Part shown: positions 1-6,802 of the stretch, in pieces
Layout: each line of letters opens with the position of its first letter
Position numbering within the stretch: position 1 is the first letter of the stretch
IMG/VR virus record: IMGVR_UViG_2563366874_000009
Reading direction: 5' to 3' (one strand)
From: a virus
Lineage: Duplodnaviria; Heunggongvirae; Uroviricota; Caudoviricetes
DNA: 6,802 nt
The notes under the pieces: model-generated
What the model saw: the letters and a program-made list of their open reading frames with translations, nothing else
Databases searched by the model: none
Told to the model about the DNA's origin: nothing
Position numbers and translations under genes: made by a program

Positions 1-102
1 TATATAATTATAGATTTATATAAAAAGTGCTTTACAGGTGGGAAAAAATTTCCTATGGTTATACCCGAAACCGAGCGATACCCGCCCTGGTTAAACCGGA
101 GA
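1..102. repeat. Terminal direct repeat, copy 1 (identical to 6701..6802); implies circular or tandem unit of 6700 bp
   Basis: Exact identity of bases 1..102 with 6701..6802 by direct reading; contains junction motif A and the 5' end of the first ORF. Confidence 0.9.
31..59 (+). promoter_or_regulatory. Putative sigma70-type promoter for the DUF3560-like gene
   Basis: TTTACA (31..36), 17 nt spacer, TATGGT (54..59); lies just downstream of AT-rich motif A. If used, it would exclude ATG 55 as the start and favour ATG 109. Confidence 0.3.
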
Positions 103-1187: not shown

Positions 1188-1207
1188 CGGCGGGACGTCT
1201 CCCGCCG
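1188..1207 (+). terminator. Perfect 8 bp inverted repeat hairpin (CGGCGGGA / TCCCGCCG) 12 nt after the ORF stop; possible intrinsic terminator
   Basis: GC-rich stem with 4 nt loop, followed by AT-rich sequence with a T-run only further downstream (TATATAGAATTATATATTT). Confidence 0.35.
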
Positions 1208-1240
1208 TATATAGAATTATATATTTATATAAATGTATAA
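1208..1240. repeat. AT-rich junction motif, copy B (ATAGAATTATATA-TTTATATAAA)
   Basis: Shares a 13-mer ATAGAATTATATA and a 10-mer TTTATATAAA with copy A (which has an extra 8 bp ATTATAGA between them); lies between block 1 and block 2. Confidence 0.7.
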
Positions 1241-1253
1241 GGACGCCTCGGCA

Positions 1254-1535
1254 ATGAAACGCAAAATTATTAACCCCCAAGATGTGATTAATTTCCTGAC
1301 CGATCACCCATGTTCAAAAGTGGACGTAATCGCGGAGCACATTGGTGTGTCGCAGAACTCTATGCGTTGCAGACTGAGAAGCATGGTTGCCGAAGGACAG
1401 ATAACAACCAGGAAAATAAATGGTTGCCTGTACTACTCCGCTAAACCGGAATTGCCATTTGGCATGAATCCTAACTCCATGTTGTTTAACACCTTATTAG
1501 CCAAAGTTAAGCCGTTGAGAGGGGCTGTGGCATGA
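1254..1535 (+). CDS. Small winged-helix/HTH-like DNA-binding protein (putative regulator), first gene of the coupled operon
   Basis: ORF 1233..1535 in track; AGGA about 10 nt upstream of ATG 1254, ATG 1233 has no SD. Segment VDVIAEHIGVSQNSMRCRLRSMVAEGQI looks like an HTH. Stop overlaps next start (ATGA at 1532). Confidence 0.45.
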   Translation: MKRKIINPQDVINFLTDHPCSKVDVIAEHIGVSQNSMRCRLRSMVAEGQITTRKINGCLYYSAKPELPFGMNPNSMLFNTLLAKVKPLRGAVA

Positions 1536-1897
1536 GCATCAAAACCCATACCGGAATAATCATTACCAATGATGGTGAGAAAAAAGTGAAGTTGCGCGAG
1601 ACGCCGACAACCTGGTGTGTTGGTCCGAAAGAAACATATCGCAAGGAAGATGGCCGTCGTTGTGGGGCACCACTTTCCCGCCGTCGCCTCCTCTTGAGCA
1701 CGATAAAACCTATCGGGCAGGTTGAGCAACCAACGACTCCGGTAACGAAGATTTCAGACAAGAGTCTGGCAAACCTGATCGCTGATGCGGACAAGGTGCT
1801 GGAGCGGAACACCCCCGTTGCAGATGAGGAATGGTGGCAGGATTTCCGAGCCGCAATGCTAGAGCTTCAGGAACGTCGTCGGGAGGAGTTGAAGTGA
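1532..1897 (+). CDS. Hypothetical protein (121 aa)
   Basis: ORF in track; ATGA overlap with upstream stop and GTGA overlap with downstream start indicate translational coupling; no family recognised. Confidence 0.5.
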   Translation: MSIKTHTGIIITNDGEKKVKLRETPTTWCVGPKETYRKEDGRRCGAPLSRRRLLLSTIKPIGQVEQPTTPVTKISDKSLANLIADADKVLERNTPVADEEWWQDFRAAMLELQERRREELK

Positions 1898-2085
1898 ACA
1901 AGAAAAATGCCGGATGGGTCAGGCCAATGAAGGCGAATAAACATCATTATTTTAATGAAGGTGAAGTAACCAGCATTTGCGGCCGTTGGATGTATTTTGG
2001 TGATTACCGTGAGCCAGACACTTTTGAGAGTCCTGATGATTGCGTGTCTTGTCGCCGGAAATTGAACAAGGTGGCTTCTAAATGA
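1894..2085 (+). CDS. Small hypothetical protein (63 aa) with three Cys
   Basis: In frame with track ORF 1831..2085; GTG 1894 overlaps upstream stop (GTGA) and stop overlaps next ATG (ATGA at 2082). Start codon choice uncertain. Confidence 0.35.
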   Translation: MNKKNAGWVRPMKANKHHYFNEGEVTSICGRWMYFGDYREPDTFESPDDCVSCRRKLNKVASK

Positions 2086-2702
2086 AAGAACGTGGTGTTG
2101 TTTTTAATGACGATATGGTTAGGGCCATCCTCGAAGGAAGGAAGACGCAGACTCGCCGACCTGTAAAAAATGTCAGGGCCGATAACTGCCTGGTTATCCG
2201 TAAACCGACAAAGAAACGCAATGGTGTCTATACCCACGTTATGGATGCACCGGAACATGGTTTATGCCCGTTCGGTAACGTTGGTGATCGCATATGGGTC
2301 CGTGAAACATTCAACGCTTTTTGGCTGGATAACGATGTCATTCAGGAAATCAAAGATGGTGTCTCTCTGGCTTCTGAACTGTGTGATTACAAGGCTGATT
2401 ACTCAGATAGTAGCAAGCCAGCTGAGGGCTGGACCCCGTCGATTCACATGCCGCGCTGGGCTTCGCGTATTTTGCTGGAAATTACCGACGTGCGTGTGGA
2501 ACGGCTGCATGACATGAGCGAGGCAGATGCTAAAGCGGAAGGCGCATCTCCGGCGACGTACAAGATTACACCGCCGGAAGCGGTTTATCGCGTTGGCTTT
2601 GGTGATATCTGGCGCGGTATTTACGGGCAAGAGAACTGGCTATCTAACCCGTGGGTATGGGTAATTGAGTTTAAACGTATTCAGGGGGCAACCAGTGAGT
2701 AA
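2082..2702 (+). CDS. ASCH-like domain protein (PUA-fold; predicted nucleic-acid binding or modified-base recognition)
   Basis: N-terminal MVRAILEGRKTQTRR resembles the ASCH GxKxxExR signature region and DRIWVRE the second conserved motif; assignment from memory of this common prophage family. Confidence 0.5.
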   Translation: MKERGVVFNDDMVRAILEGRKTQTRRPVKNVRADNCLVIRKPTKKRNGVYTHVMDAPEHGLCPFGNVGDRIWVRETFNAFWLDNDVIQEIKDGVSLASELCDYKADYSDSSKPAEGWTPSIHMPRWASRILLEITDVRVERLHDMSEADAKAEGASPATYKITPPEAVYRVGFGDIWRGIYGQENWLSNPWVWVIEFKRIQGATSE

Positions 2703-2952
2703 TTCCGCACGGCTACAGCTTGGTTTTTCACCGCTATCAAAAACCATCGTGTTGGCCAAAATGCGCGATTTAGGTGACGGAACAAAACGCCGTGTAGGCA
2801 ATGATCGCGGTCGTGATGTAACCAACGAGGCCGCACAACTCGTTTGGCATCTTGTCATGGCAGAAGGCGGTGAAATCAATTGGGAGCTGGATGATGGTTC
2901 TCGCATGGTGTTAAGGGCAGAAAAGCAGGGGGCAAACGATGAAAAACCGTAA
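2695..2952 (+). CDS. Hypothetical protein (85 aa)
   Basis: In frame with track ORF 2665..2952; GGGGG at 2684..2688 is 6 nt upstream of GTG 2695, which overlaps the upstream stop (GTGAGTAA). Alternative start ATG 2665 or 2761. Confidence 0.4.
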   Translation: MSNSARLQLGFSPLSKTIVLAKMRDLGDGTKRRVGNDRGRDVTNEAAQLVWHLVMAEGGEINWELDDGSRMVLRAEKQGANDEKP

Positions 2953-3133
2953 AGCAAAGATTCTGTTAGTTCGTAGAAACGCTCCTGGCGTCTGGCAGTG
3001 GGTGAGACTCAGCAACCGACGGATGGGGTTAATGAAACATTACGGGATGATGGATTGTGGTTTTTGCAAAAAGCCCAGCGCGGCGCAAAACCGCTGGAAA
3101 AACCACTGTTATCTGCGCACTAAAGGAGAGTGA
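2939..3133 (+). CDS. Small basic Trp/Cys-containing hypothetical protein (64 aa)
   Basis: ORF in track; GGGGG about 7 nt upstream of ATG 2939, start overlaps upstream stop. Composition is unusual, so it could be a spurious frame. Confidence 0.3.
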   Translation: MKNRKAKILLVRRNAPGVWQWVRLSNRRMGLMKHYGMMDCGFCKKPSAAQNRWKNHCYLRTKGE

Positions 3134-3134
3134 T

Positions 3135-3563
3135 GTGACCACTTTTACCGACAAAGAAATGATTAAAGAAATCAAAGAGCGCATAGGCAGCTTGGACGTT
3201 AGAGACAATATTGAGCGCCGTGCTTATGAAATTGCACTGGCATCACTGGAAGCAGAGCCGGTTGCAGTAAACGACGATATGGCTTACGCATTCCATCACG
3301 CATTGTCAGATTCATCGCTAGGCGCTGATGAAGTAGAGGAAATTAAGGCCGGTTTGCGTGCTGCCTTTGCCAACGTCACTATCCAACCAGAGCCGGTAGT
3401 GCCGGATGATGGGCGCGAAAAGTTCGAAGCACTTGTCAGGTTTCATGCGGGTGATAAAAACCATGAAACATTATTGCTTCGTGCCAACGAAGGGATGAAT
3501 TACCAGGACCCGAATGTTGATCTGGCGTGGATATTCTGGAAGTCCAGTCGTGAACATATATAA
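3135..3563 (+). CDS. Acidic hypothetical protein (142 aa), last gene of the coupled operon
   Basis: In frame with track ORF 3057..3563; AAGGAG at 3124..3129 is 5 nt upstream of GTG 3135. Alternative start GTG 3057. No Cys, so not a Zn-finger Q-type antiterminator. Confidence 0.5.
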   Translation: MTTFTDKEMIKEIKERIGSLDVRDNIERRAYEIALASLEAEPVAVNDDMAYAFHHALSDSSLGADEVEEIKAGLRAAFANVTIQPEPVVPDDGREKFEALVRFHAGDKNHETLLLRANEGMNYQDPNVDLAWIFWKSSREHI

Positions 3564-3579: not shown

Positions 3580-3759
3580 ATGCGCTTACGAGCAGTATTC
3601 AGATATTCAGAGCGGGTAATGAAGCACATACAACCGAAAACATGGCAGAAACTGGACTCTATGGGAGTTAAGTTGGAGAAGATTACTCAACTTAAGCAGT
3701 GGCATATCGGCGAATATTATGGAAGTCCTGGTCGGGATGTTCGGTTGGTAAAAAGTTGA
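3580..3759 (+). CDS. Possible small ORF (59 aa) in the leader region, absent from the ORF track
   Basis: Read by hand: ATG 3580 to TGA 3757..3759, with internal ATG 3619; non-repetitive peptide; weak SD; antisense to track ORF 3607..3789. Confidence 0.2.
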   Translation: MRLRAVFRYSERVMKHIQPKTWQKLDSMGVKLEKITQLKQWHIGEYYGSPGRDVRLVKS

Positions 3760-3904
3760 ACATTGCTTTTTTATTGATCGATTAACCACGATATGAAGGT
3801 TTTTTTATGGGGAAACCTTGTTTTAGGTGGTAACTGGGTGTAGTGTTTCATTTAACGTAGTAAAACTGCGTTAAGCGATTACCGCGTAATTTGTTGCTTT
3901 ATGA
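3760..3904 (+). promoter_or_regulatory. Structured leader upstream of the lysis cassette (candidate late promoter / antitermination region)
   Basis: Hairpin AAGGTTT..AAACCTT (3796..3819) and imperfect inverted repeat TTAACGTAG..CTGCGTTAA; several weak -35/-10 candidates (e.g. TTGAAC at 3756) but none convincing. Confidence 0.3.
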
Positions 3905-3936
3905 AGCCCTGCCTTTTTCGGCGGGGCTTTTTTTTT
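3905..3936 (+). terminator. Rho-independent terminator directly upstream of the holin RBS (tR'-like position)
   Basis: 9 bp stem AGCCCTGCC / GGCGGGGCT with one G-U wobble, 6 nt loop, followed by a 9-T run; orientation-specific for the + strand. Confidence 0.6.
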
Positions 3937-3949
3937 AACGAGGATTTCA

Positions 3950-5432: not shown

Positions 5433-5556
5433 TACTGCCTGTGATTGGGTAAAGCCCATCTACCTGACTGATCACGATATCGATGTTATGGACCGCCAGA
5501 CAAAGAAAGATATTCTGGCTCATAACAGGGCATGGGAAATCAACTGCCCCAAGTAA
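5347..5556 (+). CDS. o-spanin (Rz1-like outer-membrane lipoprotein), overlapped architecture
   Basis: AGAGGTGGG SD before ATG 5347; signal peptide MYSRVLTIWLMTMLIASC with lipobox IAS-C; starts within the i-spanin gene and extends past it. Confidence 0.6.
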   Translation: MYSRVLTIWLMTMLIASCGSRGSVPVVVDTACDWVKPIYLTDHDIDVMDRQTKKDILAHNRAWEINCPK

Positions 5557-5590
5557 TATATATTTCTATAATTATATAAATATATAGTTA
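5557..5590. repeat. AT-rich junction motif, copy C (inverted relative to copy B)
   Basis: TTATATAAATATATA matches the reverse complement of the copy B core (about 17/21); begins directly after the o-spanin stop. Confidence 0.6.
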
Positions 5591-5646
5591 CAACATTCTA
5601 TGCGCTTTTCTCATGGGCGCACGCATCAACCATGTTTGTCTGATAT

Positions 5647-5700
5647 GCCGCCGCGCCCAAAAATCCTGAATTTATTGGCTGGGATTTTCGTGCGCGGCGC
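5647..5700. other. Long interrupted inverted repeat 26 bp upstream of the tRNA
   Basis: Outer 8 bp GC stem (5649..5656 with 5692..5699) plus inner 7 bp stem AAAATCC/GGATTTT (5660..5666 with 5682..5688) around a 15 nt loop; no T-run follows. Confidence 0.4.
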
Positions 5701-5725
5701 CACACCAGACAAACAGATCAAATAT

Positions 5726-5801
5726 GGCCCCTTAGCTCAGTGGTTAGAGCAGGCGACTCATAATCGCACGGTCATCGGTTCAAATCCGGTAGGGGCCACC
5801 A
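5726..5801 (+). tRNA. tRNA with CAU anticodon; closest by memory to enterobacterial tRNA-Ile2 (lysidine-modified, reads AUA), phage-borne variant
   Basis: Cloverleaf read by hand: 7 bp acceptor stem GGCCCCT/AGGGGCC, D-arm GCTC-AGTGGTTA-GAGC, anticodon loop CTCATAA (CAT at 5759..5761), T-loop TTCAAAT, 3' ACCA. The 5' half matches my recollection of E. coli ileX; T-arm differs. Confidence 0.85.
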
Positions 5802-6109: not shown

Positions 6110-6697
6110 ATGGAGGCAATTGCATTGTTTAATCTGATTTATGCAGATCCCCCCTGGGAATACAAAGATAAGTGTAAGGATGGGAATCGTGGAGCTGGTT
6201 TTAAGTATCCAACGATGAAAGCTGAGGATATTGCTCGTATTCCTGTCTGGCAGCTTGCTAATCCTGAATCGTGTTTGTTGGCCATGTGGTGGGTTCCGAC
6301 TCAGCCAGAAGAAGCGTTGCTGGTGGTGAAAGCATGGGGATTCAGGCTTATGACCATGAAGGGCTTCACATGGAACAAATGTGGTAGCCGACAACCAGAT
6401 AAGCTGGTGATGGGGATGGGGCATATGACTCGTGCAAACAGTGAAGATTGCTTGTTTGCGGTAAAAGGCAAATTGCCGACCCGCCTTGATGCGGGGATCA
6501 TTCAGTCGTTTACATCGCCTCGTCTGGAGCATTCTCGGAAGCCTGATGTGGTTCGTGACAAGCTGGTAAGGCTGTTAGGTGATGTTCCTCGTATTGAGCT
6601 GTTTGCTCGCGGTGATTTACCTGATGGTTGGCATGGCTGGGGCAACCAGTGCAATGGAGGTATCCAGTTGCATGATGCTCTCTGGCAAGTGGCATAG
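6110..6697 (+). CDS. DNA N6-adenine methyltransferase, MT-A70-like family (orphan, no cognate nuclease seen)
   Basis: Catalytic DPPW motif (LIYADPPWEY) near the N-terminus followed by MT-A70-like conserved blocks; GGAGG SD about 9-10 nt upstream; stop TAG 6695..6697 abuts motif A. Confidence 0.75.
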   Translation: MEAIALFNLIYADPPWEYKDKCKDGNRGAGFKYPTMKAEDIARIPVWQLANPESCLLAMWWVPTQPEEALLVVKAWGFRLMTMKGFTWNKCGSRQPDKLVMGMGHMTRANSEDCLFAVKGKLPTRLDAGIIQSFTSPRLEHSRKPDVVRDKLVRLLGDVPRIELFARGDLPDGWHGWGNQCNGGIQLHDALWQVA

Positions 6698-6730
6698 AAT
6701 TATATAATTATAGATTTATATAAAAAGTGC
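6694..6730. repeat. AT-rich junction motif, copy A (ATAGAATTATATA-ATTATAGA-TTTATATAAA); also present at 1..30 through the terminal repeat
   Basis: Begins within the methyltransferase stop codon; shares 13-mer and 10-mer with copy B. Confidence 0.7.
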
Positions 6731-6802
6731 TTTACAGGTGGGAAAAAATTTCCTATGGTTATACCCGAAACCGAGCGATACCCGCCCTGGTTAAACCGGA
6801 GA
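6701..6802. repeat. Terminal direct repeat, copy 2 (identical to 1..102)
   Basis: Exact identity with 1..102 by direct reading. Confidence 0.9.

Follow-up and report, generated by a model that had tools for sequence, protein, structure and literature searches.

Seven packed early genes of an Escherichia coli phage-plasmid: a probable backbone pair followed by a mosaic cargo slot

In lambdoid phages, the nin region consists of non-essential, overlapping small genes that end the early right operon and are followed by a terminator-containing leader, the holin gene and the endolysin gene; start-stop overlaps are typical of this region. Other temperate phages carry moron-like slots, in which gene content varies at a fixed locus between conserved flanks. 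A third described arrangement is the exo-xis (b, or ea) region of lambda, P22 and the Shiga toxin (Stx) phages 933W and Phi24B, where small early genes are packed together and are highly mosaic between relatives; in two reports, exo-xis genes are described as affecting lysogenization and induction (PMC3824215, PMC7093339). Here we describe seven small, tightly packed genes, g1 to g7 (Table 1), in a 6,802-nt stretch of viral DNA (IMG/VR record IMGVR_UViG_2563366874_000009, Caudoviricetes; the whole stretch is called the window). The source of the window is a circular myovirus phage-plasmid of ~48 kb, whose family is found in ~70 complete Escherichia coli genomes. A previous sequence-only reading had proposed that the seven genes form one unit, led by a winged-helix protein, and that they are the most likely place for an undescribed system. 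Comparison with relatives favors a different architecture, to which we give a probability of roughly 80%: g1 and g2 are a backbone pair, and g3 to g7 occupy a recombination-prone cargo slot filled from an exo-xis/ea/nin-type gene pool. Mosaic accessory regions are a known kind of arrangement in temperate phages, and this stretch is an ordinary example.

Conservation of the seven genes was examined in 16 family loci (six spaced evenly along the ranking of E. coli matches, the two best matches to the window, and eight contigs from IMG/VR), and DNA coverage was counted per 50 nt at ≥90% identity in 14 relatives. In every locus reaching them, the products of the upstream DUF3560 gene, g1, g2, the downstream gene orf59 and the holin gene were 95-100% identical; g1 was 98-100% identical in all 16 loci, and g2 likewise 98-100%. 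DNA coverage was 14/14 up to position 1897 (the g2 stop) and 13-14/14 again from ~3600, with 2-12/14 between. Coverage steps were located at gene junctions (1898, 2085, 2700, 2950, ~3150 and 3560) and also inside two genes, at ~2300-2450 in g4 and ~3250-3400 in g7, where they mark module boundaries. Among plasmids with flanks 98-100% identical, g3 to g7 varied independently of one another, being present, absent or replaced by divergent alleles. g3 was a simple present/absent cassette, found in 6 of 14 relatives with its edges at gene boundaries. g4 was missing from 2 of the 16 loci and was otherwise represented by alleles 62-100% identical, and g5, g6 and g7 each occurred in a minority of these loci (g5 in 4 of 14 relatives). 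The exact g3-g7 set was found in no sampled relative, the closest (locus L089) being without g3. Slot length ranged from 1.9 to 3.9 kb among family loci, and other members fill the slot with Ea22-like, DUF551 and further small genes. Moreover, in a more distant locus, L093 (proteins 51-81% identical), DUF3560, g1, the N-terminal module of g2 and orf59 were kept, and four unrelated small overlapping genes occupied the slot. g3 is absent from the isolated, viable phage vB_YpM_39, and none of g3 to g7 is present in locus L088 or in pATCC25922_4; the existence of these natural members suggests that the cargo block is dispensable.

The same division was seen in larger collections. When 5426 complete E. 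coli genomes were searched, the g1-g2 segment was at least 80% covered in 70 genomes, whereas g3-g7 DNA reached at least 80% in one place in only 6 (best, 84%); fragments of it were present in 1545, mainly in chromosomal prophages. Outside the family, 194 well-flanked IMG/VR loci seeded with g3, g4, g5, g6 or g7 were inspected, and g1 was found in none; the 21 loci seeded with g3 contained none of the other six genes. Per gene pair, co-occurrence outside the family was 0-48%, and g4, g5 and g6 co-occurred in 10-48% of the loci, with variable spacing and other genes between them. Some observations nevertheless weigh against a freely assorting slot. Plasmid pMB17626_3 and the IMG/VR contig of locus L035 carry all seven families in the same order, and on account of this sub-lineage some order preference exists (the ASCH gene g4 first, an Ea22-like gene last), even though its alleles are divergent (g4 76%, g7 68%) and pMB17626_3 has an extra inserted gene. 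In addition, g4 and g6 lay within 6 kb of each other in 31-48% of non-family loci, and a weak functional link, rather than common lambdoid prophage ancestry, might lie behind this. On balance, the genes are not co-conserved. The co-occurrence check that had been named beforehand therefore went against the proposal of one unit or undescribed system: g1 and g2 are invariant, and g3 to g7 swap independently.

The gene calls themselves were sound. All seven plus-strand open reading frames (ORFs) overlap or abut as had been described, with junctions from g1 to g7 of -4, -4, -4, -8, -14 and +1 nt, and a purine-rich Shine-Dalgarno (SD)-like sequence precedes each of the seven starts. Because each of the seven proteins matched a PHROG family (E 2e-28 to 6e-84) and no family match was obtained for six minus-strand ORFs and one alternative-frame plus-strand ORF in the stretch, we take the seven ORFs to be real genes. 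Genes on the other strand were rejected, none having family support. For g3, the GTG start at 1894 is favored over the RefSeq choice (ATG 1927), as the PHROG homology begins exactly at the GTG codon. The composition described for the products was mostly right, in that g7 is acidic (isoelectric point [pI] 4.8) and g6, at pI 11.1, is very basic, except that g6, listed apart from the "two Cys-bearing" proteins, is itself one of them. The overlaps could not carry the meaning that had been placed on them. In the reference plasmid, 23 of the 45 other same-strand gene pairs (51%) also overlap or abut; tight coupling is thus the plasmid-wide norm and not a distinctive property of these genes, and the start-stop overlaps provide no evidence of a complex.

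The element was identified by its matches and its gene map. At least 80% of the window was found at 97-99% identity in 51 E. coli records, all of which, among the matches listed, were plasmids of 47-57 kb, and the Yersinia pestis phages vB_YpM_39, vB_YpM_41 and vB_YpM_44 contained 82-96% of the window at 97-98% identity. In PLSDB, a backbone segment was found on 56 plasmids of 46-52 kb, all classed as non-mobilizable and nearly all of Escherichia origin, and one plasmid of the reference strain ATCC 25922 (pATCC25922_4) is a family member. The published, pseudolysogenic Yersinia phage vB_YpM_HQ103 was considered as a further member and rejected, being an unrelated 32-kb peduovirus. On the map of pMB17626_3, an XRE-family repressor gene is divergent from a long rightward operon, and RepA and a ParA partition locus are also present. 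Beyond the 3' end of the operon come the lysis cassette, a tRNA gene, methyltransferase genes and a full complement of head and contractile-tail genes. Given these genes on one map, the element is a temperate myovirus kept as a plasmid. The seven genes lie at the end of the early operon, directly 5' of two holin genes (holin gene start, 3950) and of the GH108 endolysin and spanin genes, so that their placement in the early operon of a temperate element was borne out. The description of the stretch as an accessory region held for 1898-3560, the most variable part of the genome, and failed for g1 and g2, which belong to the conserved backbone. The features of an exo-xis/nin-type accessory region were all found here, namely a place in the early operon, packed small ORFs, variability among relatives, and joints at gene boundaries.

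Within the slot, g4 offered the clearest lead to a function. The protein was assigned to the PUA-like ASCH beta-barrel fold, in agreement with the earlier description of it as ASCH-like, and RefSeq names some g4 alleles "ASCH domain-containing protein". Its octapeptide G19-R-K21-T-Q-T24-R-R26 (GRKTQTRR) conforms to the GxKxxTxR motif of the E. coli N4-acetylcytidine (ac4C) amidohydrolase YqfB (PDB 1te7/9kyf), with which it shares an identical GRKTxTxR octapeptide; Lys21, Thr24 and Arg26 occur at the same numbering in the two proteins (YqfB sequence checked against PDB 1te7). Among 35 g4 homologues, K21 was invariant and T24 and R26 were at least 90% conserved. In YqfB, Thr24-Lys21-Glu74 form the catalytic triad with Thr as the nucleophile, Arg26 forms the oxyanion hole, and Tyr89 positions the substrate (PMC6972931). 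Alignment by hhalign paired E153 and Y181 of g4, both invariant in the g4 alignment, with Glu74 and Tyr89 of YqfB. Against the assignment stand the low probability of that alignment (10.8%) and the Pfam ASCH match (PF04266), which fell below the gathering score (15.4 vs 21.2 bits, E 0.03) and was partial (residues 132-157). Other differences from YqfB are that g4 is twice as long and phage-borne, has a ~100-residue insertion, and has Asp149 in place of His70. The insertion carries an invariant family motif, W117-x-P-S-I-H-M-P-R-W-A-S-R (residues 117-129), which marks the family off from minimal ASCH proteins. Taken together, these data suggest that g4 is an ASCH-fold protein with a YqfB-type (GKTR) motif and a ~100-amino-acid insertion, and a probable N4-acylcytidine amidohydrolase.

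The g4 family is large (at least 8000 proteins) and occurs in full-length form in phages of Enterobacteria, Pseudomonas, Burkholderia, Vibrio, Myxococcus, Sinorhizobium, Salinibacter and cyanobacteria, as well as in a P1-type record (Punavirus P1); this spread over phages of many unrelated hosts argues that g4 functions on its own. A widespread phage ASCH family thus appears to retain the catalytic motif of ac4C amidohydrolases. No experimental study of phage ASCH proteins was found in the literature searched. Several UniRef homologues of g4 are named "Morphogenetic protein", and we saw no evidence behind that name. By analogy with YqfB, the predicted reaction of g4 would be the removal of N4-acyl groups from cytidine, whether as free ac4C or within tRNA; in a 2026 preprint, 19 ASCH proteins of the GKTR and GKER subgroups removed ac4C from tRNA (bioRxiv 10.64898/2026.02.27.708502).

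The window also contains a plus-strand tRNA gene with anticodon CAT (5726-5801), which ARAGORN calls tRNA-Met; in the matching plasmids, PGAP calls it tRNA-Ile (lysidine type). Just 5' of it (5633-5715) is an imperfect inverted repeat with 34-nt arms, 85% complementary, and a 15-nt loop. In the plus-strand genes of the plasmid, ATA makes up 26% of Ile codons (16.4 per 1000), and this usage fits a phage-carried, AUA-decoding tRNA with a CAU anticodon. To our knowledge, tRNA ac4C in E. coli occurs only at the wobble position of elongator tRNA-Met, whose anticodon is CAU. One might imagine that, as the phage develops, g4 serves a decoding strategy by erasing ac4C from the tRNA of the host; we consider this improbable, and the connection with the tRNA speculative. 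If it were true, g4 would belong to a phage strategy that remodels AUG and AUA decoding. A linked pair of g4 and an MT-A70-family methyltransferase was considered and rejected, because only 5 of the 49 g4 loci outside the family had an MT-A70 gene within 6 kb. The window has such a gene 3' of the lysis genes (6110-6697, plus strand), and at 21654-25534 of pMB17626_3 (locus L106) two ParB/Srx-domain proteins adjoin a large methyltransferase gene; the element invests heavily in nucleic-acid methylation.

The remaining cargo genes were less informative individually. g3 (phrog_2358, E 2e-30) has His17, His18, Cys29, Cys50 and Cys53 invariant in 24-25 distinct homologues, a His2-Cys3 pattern that would be compatible with a zinc-binding mini-protein or zinc knuckle. 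g5 matched DUF7446 (PF24233) at 62.4 bits (cutoff 24.1) over profile positions 2-68 of 70, and no mention of DUF7446 was found in the literature searched. The g5 cassette is flanked exactly by a 17-nt direct repeat, CAGGGGGCAAmCrrTGA (2682-2698 and 2926-2942), which comprises the SD sequence and the start/stop junction and may have served as a short homology for cassette gain and loss. g6 (phrog_1380, E 4e-38) is 94% identical to a reading frame located between exo and xis in the exo-xis region of 933W; a zinc-binding role for g6 was rejected, its Cys residues not being conserved. In g7 (phrog_660 and others), the N-terminal 47 amino acids are 85% identical to the N terminus of 933W L0065 (EaA-like), and a segment covering residues 29-92 is found, at 78-98% identity and lacking the remainder of the protein, in many prophages. 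g7 is modular, its middle and C-terminal parts recombining separately. It had no Pfam match at E ≤ 0.1, and so none to Ead_Ea22 (PF13935), and a PDB sequence search returned no Ea22 match.

These relationships bear on what the cargo might do. One tentative but real possibility is that the cargo genes modulate development in the manner of the exo-xis genes ea22, orf60a, orf61, orf63 and ea8.5, and tune the choice between the plasmid and lytic states or the efficiency of induction. The identities of g6 and of the g7 N terminus to 933W exo-xis sequences are in keeping with such a role, as are the reported effects of exo-xis genes noted above, the RefSeq label "ead/Ea22-like" on several alternative slot cassettes, and a prophage (locus L095) in which the N-terminal module of g2 adjoins xis and int. 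On the other hand, g7 lacks the Ead_Ea22 match, none of the seven proteins found a studied exo-xis protein in PDB sequence searches, and the genes sit in a nin-like position before lysis rather than between exo and xis.

A second proposal, possible if doubtful, is that the slot is an island of anti-defence or exclusion genes, each cassette supplying a factor of its own, with turnover driven by the defence repertoire of the host. The hypervariability seen among otherwise identical elements is what an arms race would be expected to produce, and small orphan proteins predicted to be expressed early would suit it. Yet in PADLOC-DB, eight of the nine proteins searched had no match, and the only one, of g1 to SoFic (E 0.012), was at chance level. 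Moreover, the same families occur in lambdoid exo-xis regions, for which the reported phenotypes concern lysis-lysogeny and not defence, and g4 keeps the full catalytic motif of a nucleoside/tRNA amidohydrolase, unlike an inhibitor. This proposal and the preceding one are not mutually exclusive, and a single-gene anti-defence or host-takeover factor that is as yet undescribed could be encoded by one or more of g3, g5, g6 and g7.

Turning to the backbone pair, the proposal that g1 is winged-helix-like was supported by several consistent but weak signals. g1 matched phrog_1687 ("MarR family", E 3e-31); alone, it remained under all Pfam cutoffs (FaeA 17.1/20.7, HTH_24 15.3/21.9), and four of six family members matched HTH_24 (best E 2.3e-5). 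When a g1 profile was compared with PDB, 47 matches were obtained, nearly all to winged helix-turn-helix (HTH) proteins, at E ≥ 0.011. In PDB searches with the sequences of g1, g2, g4, g5, g6 and g7 and with the g4 profile, nothing significant was found, and NCBIfam gave chance-level matches only. The g1 family is narrow, with 2 proteins found by word-indexed search and 15 representatives by exhaustive HMMER among 1.84 billion proteins. Thus, g1 is probably a small winged-helix DNA-binding regulator, as far as these profile matches go. g2 is a fusion of an N-terminal module (residues 1-62) and a C-terminal module (72-121), which an AlphaFold2 model of moderate confidence (predicted local distance difference test score 76) shows as a small all-beta domain, a linker and a helical hairpin; a fold search with this model gave no informative match. 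The N-terminal module occurs elsewhere as a stand-alone protein of 66-70 amino acids in many Enterobacter-group prophages, and the C-terminal module is a portable helical tail with differing partners, including an Ead_Ea22-domain protein.

We think it quite unlikely that g1 and g2 by themselves make up the real system, as a two-gene module of regulator and effector or as an antitoxin-toxin-like pair. The two genes overlap by 4 nt, are invariant together in all family members, and follow the common regulator-effector layout of an HTH protein and then a small protein; g1 and the g2 N-terminal module persist even in the diverged L093. In L093, however, the two genes are uncoupled by a ~100-nt gap, the stand-alone N-terminal module has no g1 homologue nearby in the many prophages that carry it, the C-terminal tail is common to unrelated proteins, and neither the PADLOC result (none for g2, chance level for g1) nor the g2 fold search suggested such a pair. 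Last, that all seven genes are one multi-component anti-defence, superinfection-exclusion or host-takeover system is very unlikely and largely refuted, since the six consecutive overlapping or abutting junctions, the early accessory-region location and the same-order sub-lineage that speak for it are outweighed by parts that are not co-conserved among near-identical plasmids or E. coli genomes, by the viable vB_YpM_39 without g3 and pATCC25922_4 without g3-g7, by the separation of the genes outside the family, by coupling that is plasmid-wide, and by the lack of a PADLOC match.

As shown in Table 1, the DUF3560 gene precedes g1. A promoter scan detected a sigma-70-like promoter (TTTACA-17-TATGGT, 31-59) ahead of the DUF3560 gene; this is the nearest upstream site to g1, and no sigma-70-like promoter was found immediately 5' of g1 or within the spacer at 1187-1247. 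The promoter at 31-59 probably drives a transcription unit containing the seven genes. Because the only sigma-70-like promoter upstream lies before it, the DUF3560 gene is probably the first gene of that unit, with g1 possibly under additional local control. The view that the unit is led by the winged-helix protein is accordingly uncertain: g1 is the first of the seven, but the nearest promoter is not directly 5' of it. The hairpin and AT-rich repeat in the spacer could possibly act as an attenuator or operator. At the other end, the run of genes extends beyond 3563, the conserved orf59 following 16 nt later, and the first strong terminator 3' of the seven genes was found at 3903-3930 plus a T run. 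This terminator ends a structured element, which marks the end of the presumed unit.

Table 1. Coordinates and properties of the features at and around the g1-g7 genes
Feature	Coordinates	Strand	Properties
Repeated promoter cassette	1..102 = 6701..6802	+	AT-rich 8-bp TTATAKAW repeats, sigma-70-like promoter, shared 5' leader up to the ribosome-binding site
DUF3560 protein gene, 355 aa	109..1176	+	Pfam DUF3560 E 6e-31; 95-100% aa identity in 16 family loci
DUF3560-g1 spacer (77 nt)	hairpin 1187-1210; AT-rich 8-bp repeat 1203-1247	+	10-bp GC-rich hairpin, no U tract, fold z -3.0
g1	1254-1535	+	ATG start, 93 aa
g2	1532-1897	+	ATG start, 121 aa
g3	1894-2085	+	GTG start, 63 aa
g4	2082-2702	+	ATG start, 206 aa
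g5	2695-2952	+	GTG start, 85 aa
g6	2939-3133	+	ATG start, 64 aa
g7	3135-3563	+	GTG start, 142 aa
Hypervariable cargo block g3-g7	1898..3560	+	Conserved DNA on both sides; from coverage, gene table and E. coli counts
orf59, 59-aa basic protein	3580-3759	+	Backbone, last gene before terminator; phrog_9594 E 9e-46; kept in 13/14 relatives
Conserved structured non-coding element	3770..3938	+	Ends in strong intrinsic terminator, immediately before holin gene

The element at 3770-3938 scored 34.3 bits against the Rfam GcvB model (gathering score 42) and had a fold z-score of -4.3. In L093 (7544-7717), a ~100-nt core of it was kept at 88% identity, and a terminator hairpin is kept there too but differs in sequence. 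The element could function as a small RNA, or as the leader of a late transcript, which transcription must cross on its way to the lysis genes. The window spans exactly one copy of the promoter cassette to the next, and its two ends are identical over 102 nt. An artefact of circular assembly was rejected as the sole explanation, since the repeat is triplicated at corresponding places in complete plasmids; in pMB17626_3 the three copies (3145-3247, 12721-12822 and 19672-19773) are each followed by a different gene. The 8-bp periodic, AT-rich TTATAKAW arrays occur in seven intergenic places of the plasmid, including window positions 1-24, 1203-1247, 5550-5602 and 6686-6730 and, among others, 8176-8209 and 8884-8984 of pMB17626_3. 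They flank parA on both sides and are found also 5' of g1 and 5' of the tRNA gene. The arrays look like sites bound by a regulator that reads repeats, such as a ParG/omega-like partition protein or g1, and a regulator of this kind could tie the plasmid state to the silencing of phage operons. The triplicated cassette, the AT-rich repeats shared with parA and the structured RNA before the lysis genes may together explain how lytic genes are silenced in the plasmid state.

On the preferred reading, the DUF3560 gene, g1, g2 and orf59 would be a backbone that stays near-identical in every relative, and the slot, bounded by g2 on one side and by orf59, the leader and the lysis cassette on the other, would gain, lose and replace single-gene cassettes and sub-gene modules by recombination at junctions. 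The cassettes would come from the small exo-xis/ea/nin-type genes of enterobacterial temperate phages. Co-transcription would probably start at 31-59, perhaps subject to modulation at the hairpin and AT-rich repeat that precede g1, and translational coupling would follow simply from the packing habit of the genome. The cargo products would act singly on host physiology, with no single complex. g4 would be the only one with a mechanistic assignment. g5, g6 and g7 would be orphans belonging with the exo-xis genes of lambda and the Stx phages, a class that collectively modulates the lysis-lysogeny decision and host physiology. The locus is cautionary in that a start-stop overlap in a phage operon is no sign of a functional unit, and an apparent seven-gene system dissolves once close relatives are compared. 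At the same time, the well-delimited slot at 1898-3560, in a widespread E. coli phage-plasmid family, provides natural presence/absence variants.

When the locus is set beside the described systems, the likeness to the exo-xis region of lambda, 933W, Phi24B and P22 lies in the packed, mosaic small early genes and in the 933W sequence kin of g6 and the g7 N terminus. The two differ in that none of the seven is homologous to the studied orf60a, orf61, orf63, ea8.5 or the C-terminal domain of Ea22, and in that the slot here belongs to the rightward early operon, before lysis, of a plasmid-borne myovirus, whereas the exo-xis region lies between exo and xis of an integrating siphovirus. With the nin region, which runs from the replication genes to Q and lysis in lambdoid phages, the slot shares the same positional logic; here, however, no NinA-NinI, Rap or NinB/Orf homologues were detected in Pfam, PHROG and NCBIfam searches, and no Q-like antiterminator was identified. 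As in moron-like slots, content is variable at one locus between conserved flanks. In contrast to those, the cassettes here have neither a promoter-like site of their own nor a bracketing terminator, apart from the hairpin that follows the DUF3560 gene and lacks a U tract; they are read within the operon and exchanged at SD/start-stop junctions, as exemplified by the 17-nt repeat around g5.

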